From positions 11,340-75,339 of IMG/VR virus record IMGVR_UViG_2627853630_000004: 64,000 bases of DNA. One strand, given 5' to 3'. A program made the translations under genes and the position numbers. Numbering within the stretch: the stretch's first letter is position 1; each line of letters begins with the position of its first letter. Below the pieces are notes generated by a model. It was not told the DNA's origin. It ran no database searches and saw nothing but the letters and a program-made list of their open reading frames with translations. Below, piece by piece: positions 2,132-38,266 of the stretch. This DNA is from a virus (lineage: Duplodnaviria > Caudoviricetes).

Positions 2132-2510
2132 AATCCATTAACTCGCAGTGCGCCTGAACAAATCCCGCGCCATAGCTCGTATACGGATCGACAAACGTCA
2201 CGCGATATCGGCGGCCGTTATAGGTCACCACATCAGCATCCAGCCGCGGCGTGGTATCTGATGGCGGCTGTCCCTGCGTCAGTCGGAATTGCGTCACGAT
2301 GAGAATAGCCCCCCTGATGTTCTGTCCGGCAGCCATGCGCCGTGCCTCGAGTGAGCGATCGACGGTCACCACGCCAGAAAATGGAATGTCTTGCGGCGTG
2401 TTGGTTGGGAAGTTGTCATCGTCCACTGTCTGCACCTGCCGATGACAAATCAGCGAGAAATCAGCAAAATCGGGATCGAGCAGTATTTCGGAAACATCGA
2501 GCAGCGGCAT
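2103..2510 (-). CDS. Head-tail adaptor/closure protein
   Basis: MPLLDVSEILLDPDFAD start, YGAGFVQAHC end; synteny. Confidence 0.65.
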   Translation of the reverse strand: MPLLDVSEILLDPDFADFSLICHRQVQTVDDDNFPTNTPQDIPFSGVVTVDRSLEARRMAAGQNIRGAILIVTQFRLTQGQPPSDTTPRLDADVVTYNGRRYRVTFVDPYTSYGAGFVQAHCELMDFDGGIPVEQ

Positions 2511-2512
2511 GA

Positions 2513-3013
2513 TTATTTCCTCACAACATAGGTGATAGAGCGCAACAGGTAGCCGTGTGCGTATAGCGGCTTTTCACCCAGCAACCCGTTAGCCCGTCGT
2601 TTTTCTCGTGTTTTTTCGGAAAGCGGCGCGAGTCGGTCACCATCACTGATCACCTTTTTCGCGCCGTCAGAGGCGATAATCCCAGCACGTTCGAGTTCAC
2701 GCTCAGCGCCAGCGGCGTTCCCCTCCAGTGCCAGTTCTGCGGCAGCTTTTAGGTGTGCTGTGGTGCGCTCACGTGTATCTTCAATACCGATATCCAGAAA
2801 GGGGCGCGGCGGTAACGTGACGACAGCACCGTCGATCTCAATCGTTGCACCAGTTGATTGCAGATAACCGATCTCGGCGTTGTTCAACTGACCGTCATCA
2901 CGCGACGCATTGCCCTCGGGTATCCCCACCAGCACATCCATCCCGGAAAGGCGCGTCAGGGCATCGATAATTGAGTCAGCGTTATCCGCCGTTACCGTCA
3001 CGCCACTTTTCAT
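2513..3013 (-). CDS. Neck/tail completion protein
   Basis: VLVGIP, NNAEIGY, PPRPFL and [10 protein letters not shown] motifs typical of this neck family. Confidence 0.65.
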
Positions 3014-3429
3014 TGCGGCGTACCTAACTGGACACCACCAGCCCCGAATACCATCAGGTATTCCCAGAACTCAGAGCCGTAACGAGAGTTGTTCCAGAAT
3101 CCCGCATTCGGATCTAGCGTCGCGCTGGCGTCGTAGCTAACCGACACCTTGTCCACTGACTTTGACGTCTGTATGCCGCTATTTGCGCCACCAGCGGTAC
3201 CCACGACAACACCTCGCATATCAGCGGCGTAAAGGTACATGTAGTGCGCGACATACAGCCCAACGAGGTAGGGGAAAAAATCCTCGCCAAAGCGCGACTC
3301 ACTAAAAAGGACGTCAGCGATAGTAAGACGTGCCTGAATCATTGCGGTCGGGTACTTTGTTTCGTCAGCGAACTGGGGAAAGGTTTCACGGAACTGGGCA
3401 ACGGTCGGCAAACTGTTATTTTTTGCCAT
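3010..3429 (-). CDS. Head-tail connector (DUF4054 family)
   Basis: [32 protein letters not shown] motifs. Confidence 0.75.
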
Positions 3430-3751
3430 TCCCCGCCACCTTAGAAAGCTCTTCGACTTTTGCGGTCAGGGTTGCAACCTGTCCCTCAAGCTCTGCAATG
3501 CGTGTGTCTTTTTCCGCTGCGTCCGCCACCGACACCTGCAAGTCAGCATCTTTCTGCGAAAGCAACGCCTCAAGCTCTGCAATGCGTGGGTCATTTGCCA
3601 CTGCTGGTGCTTCACCATCAGGCGAGCAATGCGCTTTCACAAACCAGTGCTCGGCTACTGCGTCGTCCACATCGTGGAAACCAGCAGCGAAAGGAGTAAT
3701 TTTCGCGCCATCGTTGAAGTTGAACGCCGTCAATACATAGATTTTCTTCAT
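3416..3751 (-). CDS. Small virion-associated protein with C-terminal coiled coil
   Basis: [10 protein letters not shown] motif; repeated RIAELE heptads; follows the capsid gene. Confidence 0.6.
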
Positions 3752-3764
3752 CGGTATTCCTTAG

Positions 3765-3788
3765 AAAAAAGCCCCTGTGAAAGGGGCT
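3765..3788 (-). terminator. Intrinsic terminator after the major capsid gene
   Basis: AGCCCCT-TTCAC-AGGGGCT followed by a T run on the minus strand. Confidence 0.7.
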
Positions 3789-3797
3789 GTATCTGGA

Positions 3798-4739
3798 TTA
3801 AATGCCATCCATGTAGTTCAGGGTTTCCGGGTAAACTGGCTCAACTGCCCCCAGCTTGCCGTAGTAGGTCACCAGCTGATACAGGCCGCGATACTGAATC
3901 GGCACGCTTTGCAACGGCACCATCGGGAACCGTACAAACTTCTTATCGTTGGTGTAGGCCGCCATGCGATCGGTACCACCGACACCGCGACCCTTCACCC
4001 ATTTAACCGGACGAATATTCAGTGGCTTGCCGTTCTGGTGATAGGCGATGGTGTTCGTCTCCAGATAGGTCAGCAGAGACTGGTTACCGGCACTGGAAAC
4101 AATCGTGCTCGCAAGGAACGAGTATTGCTCAGGCGGAATTAGCAAATCCTCTGGCACTTTGGAATACGCTGAACGGGCCCACGCGTTACTCAGCACCTGG
4201 TTGATGCTGGCGCGGATTTCGTCGGCGGTTGAGGTTGCCCACGGTTTGATAGCATTGGTTGGCGTCACCTGAAGCAGGTTAAGCAACCCTTTGGCACCTT
4301 TCGCAGCGTCACCGATATAAACCTGCTCGTCGGTGTCCATGTTCCATTTCAGCTGCATGCCATCGTATTTTTGGGTATCAATGGGGCGTCCAACCTGCGC
4401 GGCAGCTTTCAGTTCGATAATTGTCCAGCCAAGCTCCATACCCCACAATTCGAGCGGAAACCCTTTTTTCTCAATATCAACATTGATACCAGCAATGGCT
4501 GTGGCCAGTGGGCTGATCCAGTTTTTACCATTGGCGTTAGGTGTACCCGCAGCAGCAAAGGTGGTGTTGGTGAAAGAGCTGATTTCGTCAGCGATAGACA
4601 CGTCTTCGCGTAACTGAATGTCGCGGCTCCACGTCTGGGACGTCAGCGGAAGGTTCAGATTCTGGTCGAGGCGTTCCAACTCATGAACAAGAAAGGCACC
4701 AGAACTATCAATGGTGGCCTGGTCAAATGTCATTGGCAT
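3798..4739 (-). CDS. Major capsid protein (DUF2184 family)
   Basis: GAFLVHELERLD, GRPIDTQK, VRFPMVPL, YMDGI; follows protease and decoration genes. Confidence 0.85.
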   Translation of the reverse strand: MPMTFDQATIDSSGAFLVHELERLDQNLNLPLTSQTWSRDIQLREDVSIADEISSFTNTTFAAAGTPNANGKNWISPLATAIAGINVDIEKKGFPLELWGMELGWTIIELKAAAQVGRPIDTQKYDGMQLKWNMDTDEQVYIGDAAKGAKGLLNLLQVTPTNAIKPWATSTADEIRASINQVLSNAWARSAYSKVPEDLLIPPEQYSFLASTIVSSAGNQSLLTYLETNTIAYHQNGKPLNIRPVKWVKGRGVGGTDRMAAYTNDKKFVRFPMVPLQSVPIQYRGLYQLVTYYGKLGAVEPVYPETLNYMDGI

Positions 4740-32020: not shown

Positions 32021-33025
32021 TTAATCTGTAGTTAATGAATCGAACGGGTTTAAGGTAACAGCCGCATCCAGATGATCCGGTGCAAAATGGGCGTAACGCA
32101 TCGTCATGGTGATCGTGCTGTGACCTAAAATCTGTTGCAGTACCAGAATATTTCCGCCGTTCATCATGAAGTGTGATGCGAATGAGTGACGTAAAACGTG
32201 GGTAAGTTGCCCGCTAGGTAGCTCAATGCCAGCCCGTTTAATGGCGTACTTGAAAGACTCATAAGCTGGGGTGAAAAGCGAACCACGCTTCTTAGGCAAA
32301 AGGCTGCGCATCTTCTCAGAAATTGGCACCGTTCTGTTTTTATTCCCTTTCGTTCTGGTGAACGTGACGCGGCTTGGCAGGATTTGAGATTGCTTTAAAT
32401 CCTGTGCTTCACTCCACCGCGCTCCTGTCGCCAGGCATAGACGAACGATGATACCCAAATCCTTATTGTCTGATTCGTCACATGCAGTCAGCAGGCGCTT
32501 TATTTCATCGGGATAAAGAAATGCCAGTTCCTGATCCCCCTCTTTGAACTGGCGTATGCCGTCCAATGGATTTTCTTTATCCCACTCCCCCATCCTTTTC
32601 AACTCGGAAAAGACCGCGCGTAGGTAAGAGTATTCACGGTTGACCGTCGCTTCTTTCAGAACGGCTTTACCCTTTGGATTCCACTCACCTTTAAGGCGTC
32701 GTTCGCGATACACGGCAAACATATTTTTATCAACGTCGATAGCAAACGGATCACCCAAGCGTTCACAGATAGCGAGTAATTTCGTGTAGCGGGAATCACC
32801 GGACGATAACGTTTTGCCGTGCATGTCATACCAACGCTGAACCAAATCTTTCAGAGTGATATTACTGGTTGTGGTATCAATGCCTTTTTTATCGGCCATA
32901 AGGCGGCGCTCATAGGAAAGCGCCTCACCACGGGTGGCAAACTGTTTGCGGATGCGTTTACCATCACGGCCATAAGGGAAGCACTGGCAAAGCCATTTGC
33001 CGGATGGAAGTTTACTTACAGCCAT
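32021..33025 (-). CDS. int: Tyrosine integrase (186/HP1-like)
   Basis: TGARWSEA, TKGNKNRTVP, HVLRHSFASHF, LGHS, MRYAH. Confidence 0.95.
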   Translation of the reverse strand: MAVSKLPSGKWLCQCFPYGRDGKRIRKQFATRGEALSYERRLMADKKGIDTTTSNITLKDLVQRWYDMHGKTLSSGDSRYTKLLAICERLGDPFAIDVDKNMFAVYRERRLKGEWNPKGKAVLKEATVNREYSYLRAVFSELKRMGEWDKENPLDGIRQFKEGDQELAFLYPDEIKRLLTACDESDNKDLGIIVRLCLATGARWSEAQDLKQSQILPSRVTFTRTKGNKNRTVPISEKMRSLLPKKRGSLFTPAYESFKYAIKRAGIELPSGQLTHVLRHSFASHFMMNGGNILVLQQILGHSTITMTMRYAHFAPDHLDAAVTLNPFDSLTTD

Positions 33026-33027
33026 AA

Positions 33028-34221
33028 TTAAATGCTTTCTTCGTTAGAAAATAAATTAATGCGTTCGGCTTTTTTTCCTTCTTCTTTTTTCCAAAAAAAA
33101 CCTGTTTGCAATAATGCAACCAGATCATCTTGAGTCATAGTCACCGTATCCCACAAAGCAACTTTATTTTTCTCATCATTGGGCTTGTATATTTCAAGAG
33201 TAACCACACCGGCATCATATGACTGGCTTTCAATTAATATTGGCAAATCAACTAGTGGTTTAGGGGTTAGTTGTTTATATGGGATGAAATCCCCTGTGAA
33301 CTTTCCATCAATAGATGCTAGTGTTTCGTATCCAGCATAACAGTCATATTTAACTTTCAACAAAACGGCATGTGGTAATTTTATGAATGAGGCCCAATCG
33401 CTATAGCCTAATCTATCACTGTAGAATGAATCGCCACGATGGAAAGCAAAAGAATTCCCTTGAGTCCAAGTATCATACTGAACACCTTCAAAGGTGACTT
33501 TAGTTAACTTAATGTCAAGAGCATCCCTAAAAGCGGTGCCAACTGCAAATTTCCATCCGGAAGCGTAGCCATCAACAAATACAGCCAGGAGCGCGCTGCT
33601 TCTCCGTGGTTCCCTTACTGTTCTAAAGGTGGTTACCACTTCATCATGAACGTTTTTTATTTTTTCTAAAATATCCCCTGAATCGATTTCATAATCATCG
33701 GTAGGATCTAAAGGTATTTCACCCGTTTCAATGAAATTGAGAAATTGCTGTTTAGTGAGGATAAAGCATCCTTTTTCATTAGCTTCTTTTATTTTTTTCC
33801 AACCAGCATTGGCACCACAGCAAAGAAAATAAAGCTTAGCTGTAACGCCAGCCCTCACGACAAAATCATTTTCCTTAGCCAATTTAGTTAATTCATCTTT
33901 TTCGCTTTTATCAAACCCAGTAAAGCAGATTTCCAAGCCAAGTTTTTTTGTTTTTACTTTTCTAGAGATGGGATTATTTTTGTATTCATCCTTATCAAAA
34001 GATTTATCAAATGAACACAATTCCTCTTCTGAATTAAAAAACCTGACTATTCTGTCAGTGCTATAAGTTCTATAGCCTTTTTTATTTATTGAATACCCTT
34101 GTAAAAAGCCATCTTTATGCACCAAGTTAACTATGTGATTAGGGGATTCTTCATTTTTAGCATTAACATAAATAAAAAAGGCTTCTTTATTATCACTCAC
34201 TTTCCATTCATCAAATAGCAT
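33028..34221 (-). CDS. AT-rich accessory protein: WYL-like N-terminus, BRCT domain and unknown C-terminal domain
   Basis: LQGYS...YRTYSTDRI (WYL-like); ICFTGF...VTAKLYFLCCGANAGWKKIKEA (BRCT). Confidence 0.65.
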   Translation of the reverse strand: MLFDEWKVSDNKEAFFIYVNAKNEESPNHIVNLVHKDGFLQGYSINKKGYRTYSTDRIVRFFNSEEELCSFDKSFDKDEYKNNPISRKVKTKKLGLEICFTGFDKSEKDELTKLAKENDFVVRAGVTAKLYFLCCGANAGWKKIKEANEKGCFILTKQQFLNFIETGEIPLDPTDDYEIDSGDILEKIKNVHDEVVTTFRTVREPRRSSALLAVFVDGYASGWKFAVGTAFRDALDIKLTKVTFEGVQYDTWTQGNSFAFHRGDSFYSDRLGYSDWASFIKLPHAVLLKVKYDCYAGYETLASIDGKFTGDFIPYKQLTPKPLVDLPILIESQSYDAGVVTLEIYKPNDEKNKVALWDTVTMTQDDLVALLQTGFFWKKEEGKKAERINLFSNEESI

Positions 34222-34268: not shown

Positions 34269-34871
34269 TCAATGCGCCAACAGCATCCCCAGCACGATCC
34301 CTGCCGCAAGCACTGCGCCAAAAATCCGTGGTTCTGCTTTTAAAGTATTTACCGCATCTTGCCACGTCTGTACTTTTGGGGGGGGTGTGTTGGTGGTAGT
34401 TCTACCCTGCCGCTCATCCAACCACCCCATAGCCTGCTGAAGCTGGGGGCGGGCTAAATCATTTAACCGACTGGTTCCAAAATTGATGTGGCAGAACCGT
34501 GTAAGCTGTTCGCGTAATTCGTTTTGCTCTGTGCTTCTTAATAACTGAGACACTAGTTTTTTATTAGCATCCCTTTCCCTGCTACGCTCATGTAGCGCAT
34601 TCAGGAAACTTAGCGCTGTGGAATACTGGCTGATGGTGATTTCTTCAATACCGTTAACACCAAGCTCCGCATGTAAGCGACGCCAAACAAAACGCACATC
34701 TTCACGCCCTGCTTCCGCAATATCTTTCACCAACTGGTTTAATTGGGAACGCTGGGCGCTAACCAATGGGCGCAAATCTTCTTTAGTTTGTGGGGCGGCA
34801 ATATTGATATTTTTTTCGTAATAATCACGTCCTGCGACCCGATTACTATCCCCTTGAGCCTCTACGGTCAT
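34269..34871 (-). CDS. C-terminally membrane-anchored helical protein (Flk-like repeats)
   Basis: RPLVSAQRSQL, VWRRLHAELGV, C-terminal IFGAVLAAGIVLGMLLA TM segment. Confidence 0.65.
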   Translation of the reverse strand: MTVEAQGDSNRVAGRDYYEKNINIAAPQTKEDLRPLVSAQRSQLNQLVKDIAEAGREDVRFVWRRLHAELGVNGIEEITISQYSTALSFLNALHERSRERDANKKLVSQLLRSTEQNELREQLTRFCHINFGTSRLNDLARPQLQQAMGWLDERQGRTTTNTPPPKVQTWQDAVNTLKAEPRIFGAVLAAGIVLGMLLAH

Positions 34872-34893
34872 CCATTACATCCTTGATGCTTCG

Positions 34894-35307
34894 CTACTTC
34901 TTGCCTTCGTGATAGTCCCTGCCCGCTACGCGTTGGCCGCTACCCGTTACGTTTATCGATGCTGTTGCAGAGCTACCCGCCGTCAAAGCGGCTAAGGCGG
35001 CGGCTTTTATCGCCAGTGGCGCAGAACGATAGATTTTGATCAGTTCTAATTCGTCATTAGAAATGTCACCAAGGTCAGGGGTTCTTTTTCCAGTGAGGAT
35101 ATACAAAGTATCCATGCCGTAATTTTCACTAAGAAAAGCAAGCGTTGCACCATCAGGCGCAGTTTCGCCACGCTCGTATTTTCCCCAAGTCCTTGTTGTC
35201 GTGCCTAATTCTTCTGCAATTGCACTCTGACTTTTACCAATCGTTTCCCGCTCTTCGCGCAAACGCCCACCAATAAGGAATAAAAATTCCTCTTTCGAAG
35301 TTGACAT
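34894..35307 (-). CDS. Immunity repressor (XRE HTH, no peptidase domain)
   Basis: RLREERETIGKSQSAIAEELG...YERGETAPD; divergent from the early operon. Confidence 0.85.
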   Translation of the reverse strand: MSTSKEEFLFLIGGRLREERETIGKSQSAIAEELGTTTRTWGKYERGETAPDGATLAFLSENYGMDTLYILTGKRTPDLGDISNDELELIKIYRSAPLAIKAAALAALTAGSSATASINVTGSGQRVAGRDYHEGKK

Positions 35308-35346
35308 AGGAAGTTTTCTTCACTAGATTGTGTTGAACAGGAACTT
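35301..35346 (+). promoter_or_regulatory. Early lytic promoter with candidate operator repeats
   Basis: TTGACA (35301)-17 bp-TAGATT (35324); AGGAAGTT (35308) and AGGAACTT (35339) direct repeats. Confidence 0.65.
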
Positions 35347-35367
35347 AGTGGATCACAACATATCACT

Positions 35368-35562
35368 ATGACACAAGAAAATCATGATCAGAGATCGCGT
35401 TTACCGCGTGGTATCGCATCCAAGAACCCTACCCCAATGCGCTTATCGGACGATGAGCGCGACAAACTGGCGGCACTAGCAGCACAAGAAAGCCGCTCAC
35501 TTTCAAGCATGGCCCGCCTGGTGTTTCTGCGGGGGCTCGAATCTTTTAACGTTCAAGGATAG
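35368..35562 (+). CDS. Ribbon-helix-helix (CopG/Arc-like) regulator
   Basis: TPMRLSDDERDKLAALAAQESRSLSSMAR pattern. Confidence 0.7.
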   Translation: MTQENHDQRSRLPRGIASKNPTPMRLSDDERDKLAALAAQESRSLSSMARLVFLRGLESFNVQG

Positions 35563-35573
35563 CAGGTGGTGAA

Positions 35574-35786
35574 ATGGCTAAGGCATTAAACATTAATATC
35601 ACCGTCCCTACCCCATATGTTTCATTAAAAACATATTCAGAAATGACGGGGATACCATTCAGAACATGTGAAGGAATGGTTTCTGACGGACGGATTATCA
35701 TTCGCCCCAAGAAAGGAAGAATGGAGAAAGTCGAGGTTAATTTAATCGCCATGCTTCGGGATGCGATAACCAATAGCGAAATTTAA
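35574..35786 (+). CDS. cox: Cox/Apl-like repressor-excisionase
   Basis: PYVSLKTYSEMTGIP...GRIIIRPK...VEVNLIAM. Confidence 0.75.
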   Translation: MAKALNINITVPTPYVSLKTYSEMTGIPFRTCEGMVSDGRIIIRPKKGRMEKVEVNLIAMLRDAITNSEI

Positions 35787-36624: not shown

Positions 36625-36858
36625 ATGAGAAATGCAGAAGTTAGAGGGATAAAAGTAGATCTCAATGAAGCACTTATCGAGCTACTAAAAAAAGCACGTC
36701 TGGAAGAAAAAAAAGACCAGCACTTAGCGTTTTCCTTGCGTCTGGCTGGGTTGTCTATCCATGCCCAGAAAAAAGAGCTTTCCACCGCAGAGGTTATCGA
36801 GCTGCTGCGCAAAGAGGCAGAACGCTTCGAACATTCATCGCAGGAGATCATTGCATGA
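36625..36858 (+). CDS. DUF2732 family protein
   Basis: LLKKARLEEKKD, AEVIELLRKEAE. Confidence 0.7.
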   Translation: MRNAEVRGIKVDLNEALIELLKKARLEEKKDQHLAFSLRLAGLSIHAQKKELSTAEVIELLRKEAERFEHSSQEIIA

Positions 36859-37439
36859 ACAACGTCATGATCGATATTGAAGCGCTCGGCAAAAAAGCTA
36901 ACGCCCCGATAGGTTCAATTGGCGCGGTGTTCTTCCATCCAGTAACGGGTGAATTGGGTGAGCGTTTTTATTGCCGCGTAGATTTTGAAAACGACATGCT
37001 TAATGGCGCGATGCCGGACGGTGACACGATCAAGTGGTGGTTGCGTCAGTCATCGGAAGCCCGTGCGGAGTTAATCAGCGATGATGCCTGCCCTATCTGG
37101 GATGCGGTTAGTCAGTTTAGTGATTGGCTGACAGATAACGCTGAGAGCCTGGAATCATTGCATGTTTGGGCAAATAGCCCTTCGTTTGATTGCGCCATCC
37201 TGAAATCATCATTTGAGCGTACTGATACTGATATTCCGTGGAAATATTGGAACGAACGGGACGTCAGGACGATGAAAGAAGTTGGGTTCGCCATCATAAA
37301 TATGAATATGAGCCCATTTCTTGGCACAGCAGAAACCATCGGCGTTAAGCATAACGCACTTGATGATGCGATCAGCCAGGTCGCGTTGGTTTCTGCTGTT
37401 ATGTCTCGGTTGGTTCAGAATCAAGGCGGTGAATTATGA
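36855..37439 (+). CDS. DEDDh 3'-5' exonuclease (ExoVIII-associated domain)
   Basis: MIDIE, TIKWW, VWANSPSFD, RDVRT, HNALDDA. Confidence 0.85.
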   Translation: MNNVMIDIEALGKKANAPIGSIGAVFFHPVTGELGERFYCRVDFENDMLNGAMPDGDTIKWWLRQSSEARAELISDDACPIWDAVSQFSDWLTDNAESLESLHVWANSPSFDCAILKSSFERTDTDIPWKYWNERDVRTMKEVGFAIINMNMSPFLGTAETIGVKHNALDDAISQVALVSAVMSRLVQNQGGEL

Positions 37440-38266
37440 TCCGCCCGTTCATCAAATGGGCGGGGGGTAAAACCCGCGTCATGCCTGATTTGTTGCCTCT
37501 CCTGCCTAAAGGTGATTGCCTCATCGAGCCGTTTGTCGGTGGTGCGTCAGTATTCCTGAATACGGATTATCGCCGTTATGTGCTCGGCGATATCAATCCC
37601 GATCTGATTAATTTATATCAGTACGCCGCTTATGATACAGAACGGTTAATAGCCACTGCGCGTGAGCTATTTAATAGTGGCAATAATGCAGATGCGTATA
37701 ACGGTAATCGGCTGAGCTTTAACTATCAAAAATCAAACCCCAGCATACTTACAGCCGCTCTATTTTTATATCTGAATCGGCATGGCTTTAACGGGCTGTG
37801 TCGTTATAACAATGCTGGGGATTTCAATATTCCGTTCGGCAAATACCGTAAACCATACTTTCCTGAGCATGAAATACGATTGTTTGCTGAAAAAGCCAAT
37901 GACACGGCAACTATCTTTGTTTGTGCTGATTTTAAAGAAGCATTACTGGCTCATACCGAGCCAGGTTTCGTCATTTACTGTGACCCTCCTTACCTGCCTG
38001 CCAGCGAAACAGCAAGTTTCACCCAGTACCACACATCGGTTTTTACCTCCGCACAACACCGAGATCTGGTCAGGTTGCTATGGGATATGCACCGCCAATA
38101 CGCCACTCCTGTAGTCATCTCAAATAGCGACACTCCCGCTACGCGCGAGATTTATCAGCACTATCAATTCCATGAAATCGCGGTTCAGCGTTCTATCAGT
38201 GCAAACGGCATCACGCGCGGTGCCGCAAAAGAAGTGATCGGCGTGCTGAATAAGGTTTGTGAGTAA
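37436..38266 (+). CDS. dam: DNA adenine methyltransferase (Dam/D12 family)
   Basis: KWAGGK, EPFVGG, YLNRHGFNG, YCDPPY. Confidence 0.9.
   Translation: MIRPFIKWAGGKTRVMPDLLPLLPKGDCLIEPFVGGASVFLNTDYRRYVLGDINPDLINLYQYAAYDTERLIATARELFNSGNNADAYNGNRLSFNYQKSNPSILTAALFLYLNRHGFNGLCRYNNAGDFNIPFGKYRKPYFPEHEIRLFAEKANDTATIFVCADFKEALLAHTEPGFVIYCDPPYLPASETASFTQYHTSVFTSAQHRDLVRLLWDMHRQYATPVVISNSDTPATREIYQHYQFHEIAVQRSISANGITRGAAKEVIGVLNKVCE

Follow-up and report, generated by a model that had tools for sequence, protein, structure and literature searches.

We examined the lysogeny region of a P2-like prophage on a 64,000-nucleotide (nt) stretch of IMG/VR record IMGVR_UViG_2627853630_000004 (Duplodnaviria; Caudoviricetes). 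This full stretch, hereafter the window, lies within a contig of 75 kb. Near-identical proteins bear source names that put the prophage in Pectobacterium. On its minus strand, a repressor gene is followed by a 22-nt spacer, an open reading frame (ORF) of 200 amino acids (aa) that we call the partner, a gene for a BRCT-domain protein and the integrase gene. An earlier, sequence-only reading of this DNA had noticed a peptide shared between the repressor C-terminus (the tail) and the N-terminus of the adjacent membrane protein (the head), and the sequence and ORF list bear it out. The repressor ends in INVTGSGQRVAGRDYHEGKK, and the adjoining gene starts with MTVEAQGDSNRVAGRDYYE. The earlier reading left out the first two residues of the partner, MT; its full N-terminus is MTVEAQGDSNRVAGRDYYEKNINIA.

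The two copies are encoded differently. As had been reported, six of the seven RVAGRDY codons differ (CGC GTA GCG GGC AGG GAC TAT in the repressor versus CGG GTC GCA GGA CGT GAT TAT in the partner). Over the 18 aligned tail/head residues, nine are identical, with the same codon used in two of those nine. Across the 75-kb contig, the pattern [AS]G[RG][DN][YFILVM] occurs in its full motif context at these two places only, and two other matches to the pattern lack that context. We scored tails against heads without gaps (BLOSUM62), using shuffled heads as the control (3420 trials). Shuffled heads gave a mean of 18.8, a 99.9th percentile of 40.6 and a maximum of 45. The window's own tail and head scored 53, above every shuffled control, and chance is therefore no explanation for the match.

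The same arrangement recurs in other phages and in bacterial genomes. When the DNA of the window's module was used as a query, we found no match in phage records or E. coli genomes; the relatives described here came from protein-level searches. We collected 194 loci via repressor alignments, comprising 34 from species genomes and 80 of 308 plus 80 of 463 confirmed IMG/VR relatives. An HTH (helix-turn-helix) ORF was present in 186 of the 194 loci, which together held 115 distinct 35-residue tails (distinct tails were counted because some contigs came in twice). A pair was called positive when the first 50 residues of an ORF no more than 1.5 kb downstream scored 41 or higher against the tail (BLOSUM62, ungapped). 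By this measure, 54 of the 115 distinct tails (111 loci) had a matching downstream head. Tail/head scores were bimodal, with none between 33 and 41. Clear negatives had helical tails or belonged to long S24-type repressors, and visible matches also occur below the threshold, at scores of 20 to 31 (L038/L169, L161-L168, L147, L153 and L033; L numbers denote individual loci). The tail of L188/L218 is frameshifted.

Searching from the partner side gave the same picture. With a 7-sequence partner alignment as the starting point, a matching upstream tail was found in 79 of 80 loci (49 of 50 distinct pairs), on HTH cores quite unlike one another in sequence. Named examples include Escherichia phage 520873 (tail ...NNRIAGRDYNETKGR; head MAVNSNGSNNRVAGRDFHE...), Pseudomonas phage B3 (ORF18 tail ...GNRTAGRDFHERKE; ORF20 head MNIEVTGSNNIVAGRDFIE...) and Ralstonia phage YO107_2 (tail ...TGDIFGRDLV; head ...PVGDVAGRDII). 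Among phage records, the B3-type repressor and partner occur in B3 and Ps59 only. The E. coli version of the pair is present in 520 of 5426 complete genomes, where RefSeq labels its members 'helix-turn-helix domain-containing protein' and 'hypothetical protein'. Across the module, the repressor C-terminal tail is disordered, rich in Gly and Asn, and about 17 to 26 residues long. By sequence comparison, repressor and partner form a conserved two-gene module that P2-like, B3-like and related phages of Pseudomonadota carry in their lysogenic operon.

The spacing of the two genes is tight, at −23 to +33 nt in 52 of the 54 distinct pairs, and the other two pairs hold an unrelated gene between repressor and partner. 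Unrelated genes of 114 to 149 aa occupy this position in L054 (3209..3553), L058 (2945..3352) and L138 (2582..3031), two of them with signal-peptide-like N-termini. Morons seem to insert at the repressor/partner junction, and the motif pair is still matched across them. Gene number also varies. In Ralstonia phage YO107_2 (L003), consecutive membrane proteins (2483..3340 and 3268..3747), both starting GPVG-D/Q-VAGRDIIN, lie downstream of one repressor, which may therefore have two partners. In L106, tandem repressor genes (2468..2893 and 2920..3324), each with a tail of the AGRD type (one with AGCD for AGRD), precede one partner. In Escherichia phage 520873 (L001, NC_049344.1), the partner gene at 3409..4021 is broken (three pieces by tblastn) and unannotated, and the integrase annotation is split into two ORFs. 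IMG/VR and E. coli genomes commonly carry this partner intact, at 216 aa.

Tails and heads change together. We clustered 59 adjacent positive pairs by tail similarity and obtained nine classes at a cut-off of 0.45 (seven at 0.35 and 14 at 0.55). The AGRD class, class A, reads G-x2-N-R-x-AGRD-Y/F-x-E; other examples are QQF-N/H-G-x-V-x2-V-x2-GD-I/V-x-N, F-N/H-G-x4-GQF-A/S-x3-I-I/V-N, FHG-x-VGQA-x2-G-N/D-I-x-N and Q-S/T-V-x-GD-x-A-I/V-Q-I/V-G. With one representative per class, the cognate head ranked top for nine of nine tails and the cognate tail for nine of nine heads. The cognate scores summed to 461; permutations averaged 238 with a maximum of 412, and none of 20,000 reached the observed sum. 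Co-occurrence and covariation of the motif in homologous gene pairs had been proposed as a test of the shared peptide; together with the 79 of 80 partner-side loci, these rankings give a positive answer at the level of motif classes. Over 28 representative pairs, 263 aligned residues are identical and 111 of them share a codon. The claim that the match is kept at the protein level and is not a recent DNA duplication thus holds well beyond the window, and the codon differences rule out recent duplication or gene conversion as its cause.

One class carries a short (I/V)-Q-(I/V)-G core in the tails of L037, L194, L043 and L113, and also in the L037 and L194 heads (AIQIG/AVQVG, SVQIG/NVQAG, AVQIG, NVQVG). 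It resembles the RHIM/BASS3 G-phi-Q-phi-G signature over four residues only.

Two Pectobacterium loci, L070 and L020, show tail and head changing jointly. Their DNA is ~92% identical from the operator to about repressor codon 90, and 45-50% identical through the tail and the partner gene. The repressors are identical up to ...AVLAALT, so that the tails alone differ. One version pairs a class-A tail (...NNRVAGRDYKGK) with a 118-aa Zn-ribbon membrane protein whose head is also of class A (...NNNRVAGRDYHE). The other has a tail of the FNG...GQF... type (...FNGDISGQFAGNQIIN) and a 194-aa Flk_N partner with a head of the same class (...FNGTAQGQFSSRDIIN). L236 and L272 provide a second case of cassette exchange, inside class A. 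Tail and partner thus move together as a cassette. The bodies behind the head are of at least four kinds: Flk_N with an anchor, Zn-ribbon with membrane segments, a B3 type, and a soluble Flk_N-like type. The partners of L003, L038 and L107 (260 to 285 aa) have a small Cys-containing end past the membrane segment (C-x-F/Y-x-GK-x-Y-x-V/I-GS...). This end would lie in the periplasm and might serve in sensing; the window's partner lacks it.

Coordinates of the features at the window locus are collected in the table below. No terminator-like site was found in the spacer between repressor and partner. The divergent Arc-like and Cox-like early genes mark a P2-like switch.

Table. Features of the lysogeny region, in positions of the 64,000-nt window.
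Feature	Position	Strand	Evidence
Putative immunity repressor, 137 aa	34894..35307	-	Pfam HTH_31/HTH_3/HTH_19; PHROG transcriptional regulator/repressor families
Repressor tail motif I-N-V-T-G-S-G-Q-R-V-A-G-R-D-Y-H-E (residues 118-134), then basic end GKK	34906..34956	-	Sequence; kept in the alignment of relatives
22-nt spacer, repressor stop to partner start, with AAGGA ribosome-binding site	34872..34893	-	Sequence
Partner protein, 200 aa: N-terminal motif, Flk_N helical domain, linker, C-terminal transmembrane anchor	34269..34871	-	phrog_5825 (E 4.7e-66)
Partner N-terminal motif V-E-A-Q-G-D-S-N-R-V-A-G-R-D-Y-Y-E (residues 3-19)	34815..34865	-	Sequence
Flk_N-type helical domain, partner residues ~35-158	34398..34769	-	AlphaFold2 model and Flk match
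Partner C-terminal transmembrane anchor, residues ~181-199; ~1 residue after the anchor	34275..34331	-	Kyte-Doolittle and AlphaFold2
Divergent promoter/operator region, between repressor and Arc-like early gene	35308..35367	.	RNA contig ends and fall in depth
Remaining leftward operon: BRCT-domain protein (33028..34221), integrase (32021..33025)	32021..34221	-	ORF list, Pfam, PHROG
Arc-like ribbon-helix-helix protein, divergent early gene	35368..35562	+	phrog_3431 (4.3e-24)
Cox-like excisionase/repressor, divergent early gene	35574..35786	+	phrog_575 (3.6e-26)
Early operon, 194-aa and 276-aa ORFs: putative exonuclease-like protein and Dam-type adenine methylase	36855..38266	+	Translations, by eye

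The operon is expressed in a lysogen. RNA-derived contigs from two RNA-seq runs of a single study, 98.5% identical to the window, span 33900 to 35305/35329 at word depths of 1111 and 522; over the adjacent stretch 35356-35500, depth is 5.2 and 3.6. The contigs are 2346 and 3445 nt long and, by length, continue leftward of 33900 by 916 and 2039 nt, on the BRCT/integrase side. The step in depth at the divergent promoter is ~200-fold, which argues against DNA carry-over. These observations fit a lysogen that expresses the repressor-partner-BRCT-integrase operon with the lytic side off, the contigs being no proof of one transcript. Two further runs, available as raw reads, had no read on the stretch and so carry no information on its expression. 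The BRCT protein, which lies between partner and integrase in this lysogen-expressed operon, is a candidate accessory or defence gene (397 aa; Pfam BRCT 1.9e-05; phrog_36782, 1.6e-85; a weak PADLOC match to PDC-S48).

The repressor has the features of an XRE-family phage immunity repressor, with an N-terminal HTH_3/HTH_31 domain and a gene divergent from the early lytic operon, and we infer its immunity role from position and family. It comprises an XRE-type HTH (residues ~12-75), a helical hairpin (84-113) and a disordered tail (114-137). We modelled repressor and partner as AlphaFold2 monomers, using alignments of 26 and 17 natural relatives, respectively. In the repressor, the predicted local distance difference test (pLDDT) score is above 88 at residues 11-70 and 45-51 at residues 111-137. 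Its Protein Data Bank (PDB) sequence profile matched the P22 C2 and 434 repressors in the HTH only. No Peptidase_S24 domain was matched in Pfam, and the repressor is thus not of the LexA/CI self-cleaving type. A LexA-box-like consensus had no match with three or fewer mismatches in the window, which is a weak negative.

The partner is a phage-encoded relative of Flk, a tail-anchored protein, and carries the motif as an addition at its N-terminus. Residues 1-23 are unstructured in the model (pLDDT ~43) and residues 35-158 are confidently predicted (90-97), with helices at 38-55, 59-70, 80-113, 117-131 and 141-158. After a linker comes a C-terminal helix (171-199) that is hydrophobic from residue 181; the 19-residue Kyte-Doolittle maximum, taken in a near-identical relative, is 1.96 at residue 181. 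The window's partner has almost no periplasmic part. Flk_N (PF27202) is precomputed on all 38 relatives and on 91-100% of the members of the nearest Atlas clusters, and the partner belongs to that family. It is not an Flk equivalog: its match to NCBIfam Flk (NF007987; E 1.1e-13, residues 26-156) scores 51.1 bits against an equivalog cut-off of 353. Flk itself, a flagella biosynthesis regulator and tail-anchored inner-membrane protein of Enterobacteria, has the Flk_N domain and C-terminal tail anchor in common with the partner. Unlike the partner, true Flk is chromosomal, 330 to 416 aa long, and has a Pro-rich MQP... N-terminus without the motif (representative search). Flk is one of the tail-anchored proteins that PMC6794478 covers.

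The family that the partner matches in PHROG, phrog_5825, is listed with function unknown. The partner family counts 85 clusters at 50% identity. Foldseek against the PDB returned no match to the partner at E ≤ 0.001, its PDB sequence profile had no match, PADLOC has no family matching it, and no protease family was matched in Pfam or NCBIfam, so that it does not qualify as an ImmA-type metalloprotease. Superposition of residues 36-100 (34572..34769, the first three Flk_N helices) on phage recombinases gave Z scores of 8.7 for Sak, 8.2 for NinB and 7.7 for Red-beta (root-mean-square deviation 1.5-2.4 over 59-64 residues). A function drawn from this alignment (VIA-align) to recombinase C-terminal domains was rejected, because Z scores of 7.7 to 8.7 are below the trustworthy level for helical bundles.

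How might the two proteins act on each other? We think there is a real chance, if not quite an even one, that the tail and head motifs pair directly and so tether or titrate the repressor at the membrane. The motifs would bind one another by strand-to-strand (homotypic beta) pairing. In most cases the partner is held at the cytoplasmic face of the inner membrane via its C-terminal anchor, and it would tether part of the repressor pool there. As a co-expressed titrator, the partner would set the level of free repressor by its own amount, state or turnover, and the distinct motif classes could prevent cross-talk among co-resident prophages. What we infer, then, is physical binding, sequestration at the membrane and any effect on immunity or induction.

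Two other locations for whatever the tail recognizes were considered. The repressor core is ruled out, because one core carries different tails with matching heads, and so is the partner body, because bodies differ across pairs. The head motif is the sole constant companion of the tail, and neither the 75-kb contig nor the complete genomes of phages 520873, B3 and YO107_2 contain a third copy of the motif; we therefore read the two motifs as direct binding partners. Both segments are disordered in the AlphaFold2 monomers, as expected of segments that fold on binding.

Several observations weigh against direct pairing at the membrane. L023, L109, L037 and L194 have distinct partners without a membrane segment, and therefore membrane tethering cannot be universal. 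The motif-like tails of L173 and L199 have no partner detected in the available flanking DNA. Inside class A (NR-x-AGRD-Y/F), the largest class, fine-scale matching is weak: variable positions gave 169 identities, compared with 154.6 on average under permutation, and 130 of 10,000 permutations reached 169, uncorrected for relatedness. A class-A cognate head is often outscored by another class-A head. The strong conservation of AGRD across hosts could instead be a sign of a conserved reader. Furthermore, this reading offers no reason why a phage should make its repressor together with a titrator of it.

A second explanation, which we regard as unlikely but worth serious attention, is amyloid-type templating. 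By analogy with known amyloid pairs, clustered partner N-termini would nucleate a cross-beta fold that recruits repressor tails. Cooperative and essentially irreversible repressor inactivation might then serve as the induction switch; or, by the same analogy and with the same doubt, the repressor might template the membrane protein, as in HET-S/NWD2 and Bab/Agp. Amyloid pairs are defined by a layout in which neighbouring genes encode proteins that share a terminal motif (10.1101/2020.01.06.895854; 10.1101/2024.11.07.622273), and a shared terminal motif, of 17 to 26 residues, is what we find here. The likeness extends to the fungal amyloid signalling motif (ASM) pair HET-S/NWD2 and to bacterial amyloid signalling (BASS) pairs (BASS1-10; E. 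coli Bab/Agp, BASS11), in that one partner is directed to the membrane and several sequence classes are matched within each pair. The motif is rich in Gly, Asn and Gln, with alternating hydrophobics and several glycines (for example, TFHGSVGQAVAGNITNKSGVTFNVG), and many partners have two motif-like units (NRVAGRDFHEKNI...NFISRDFVNITIP) to the repressor's one. HET-s and NWD2 likewise have a two-repeat versus one-repeat arrangement.

Further points in favor of templating come from the (I/V)-Q-(I/V)-G core of one class, which is like the RHIM/BASS3 G-phi-Q-phi-G signature (10.1101/2020.01.06.895854), and from precedents. Repressor aggregation or sequestration is described for RstC and Qtip (10.1101/2019.12.16.877910), and amyloid signalling has a precedent within E. 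coli prophage regions, where Bab/Agp is located (10.1101/2024.11.07.622273). Against templating, motifs of class A carry charged residues (R, D, E, K), and no Pfam amyloid-motif family was matched at E ≤ 1. In addition, both proteins are produced constitutively from one operon, and a self-propagating template would need a restraint, of which none is apparent.

The pair also departs from amyloid pairs in its parts. Where those have an NLR/TPR sensor, we find a DNA-binding XRE repressor (no NLR in Pfam or NCBIfam), and where they have a Bell/HeLo effector, we find a tail-anchored Flk_N protein (no Bell/HeLo at Pfam E ≤ 1). The layout is also the other way round. In BASS and ASM pairs the receptor carries the motif at its N-terminus and the effector at its C-terminus; here the soluble protein has it at the C-terminus and the membrane protein, whose anchor is C-terminal, at the N-terminus. 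The role there is cell death, versus lysogeny here. The sequence-only reading had joined a direct link between tail and partner to an amyloid-type switch of the BASS kind. The link is supported by class-level covariation and by the codons; membership of BASS does not stand, given the missing NLR-type receptor and Bell/HeLo effector and the reversed orientation. A sensor role for the partner and SOS-independent induction, both part of that reading, are conjecture. An AGRD-like BASS core had also been suggested, and no AGRD-containing consensus was found in the accessible part of 10.1101/2020.01.06.895854. A broader form of templating, in which prion-like conversion would govern lysogeny in many P2-like, B3-like and related prophages and a membrane nucleator would flip the switch without RecA, strikes us as improbable. 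Equally improbable is its corollary that the at least nine motif classes would be orthogonal address codes against mutual prophage induction.

We give a still smaller chance to a third factor that reads both motifs. Tail and head would then be ligands or degrons of one reader, perhaps a host protease or adaptor like membrane-bound FtsH, and the partner, with the same low probability, would be a competing substrate that sets repressor half-life. Lambda CIII protects CII in a similar manner. In its favor, both segments are free, disordered termini, and the membrane-anchored partner has its N-terminal tail free in the cytoplasm. The AGRD core is highly conserved across distant hosts and specificity within a class is weak, which also suits this explanation. 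Yet different classes occur in one host genus and on one repressor core (Pectobacterium L070/L020; several in Pseudomonas), and tail and head always change class jointly, which a common host reader would not demand. No further motif-bearing protein was found in four phage genomes, though a reader need not carry the motif.

The least probable explanation, in our judgment, is that the partner is an effector (of exclusion, abortive infection or lysis timing) capped by repressor tails and freed on repressor loss. Its gene occupies a position typical of lysogen-expressed prophage accessory genes and is co-expressed with that of the repressor in the lysogen, and L054, L058 and L138 have unrelated genes inserted at this site. 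Lysogens of beetrevirus Fc02 co-transcribe the gene following repc, and nearby small genes mediate exclusion (PMC9936078). Against this explanation, the motif pair could not be established in Fc02, PADLOC has no matching family, the Flk_N helical domain with a single anchor offers no obvious pore, and the soluble variants fit poorly.

The module has parallels among known lysogeny and repressor systems. RstC acting on RstR (CTXphi-RS1) and Qtip acting on cI (VP882) are small phage proteins that take a repressor off DNA by relocalization or insolubility (10.1101/2019.12.16.877910). Unlike the partner, they have no motif in common with the repressor (Qtip binds its DNA-binding domain), their expression is signal-triggered and not co-transcribed with the repressor, and they have no membrane anchor. 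Matched terminal motifs on adjacent gene products are of a known kind; the lysogeny switch is a new setting for them. In Bacillus subtilis, the antagonist gene sinI lies beside that of the XRE-type repressor SinR, and SinI copies the C-terminal association segment of the repressor and forms a heteromer with it. That segment is a helical hook, in contrast to the Gly-rich, probably beta-forming tail described here, and SinI is soluble and separately regulated. Lambda CII/CIII-FtsH and ImmR/ImmA each have a protein, encoded by the phage or element, that governs how stable or active the lysogeny regulator is, and immA is co-transcribed with the repressor gene. These systems have no sequence relation to the module and no common motif, and the partner lacks a protease domain. 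We found no description of the repressor/partner motif in a literature search whose coverage did not extend to the BASS supplementary profiles and whose AGRD query was swamped by AgrD; a term search of the ASM deep-learning paper gave no match.

Whatever the chemistry, a peptide pair that co-varies and is exchanged as a cassette is a direct experimental handle, and the motif classes might double as orthogonal protein-protein tags. If the pairing is simple tethering, the module would be a phage example of regulator control by membrane sequestration. If it is amyloid-like, amyloid signalling would extend from immune cell death to gene regulation, and if the prion-like reading were true, it would operate inside a transcriptional switch, outside NLR immunity. 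There is no general explanation for how P2-like repressors without a self-cleavage domain are inactivated or tuned. The module provides a second conserved component of such switches, one that appears in databases merely as a 'hypothetical protein'.

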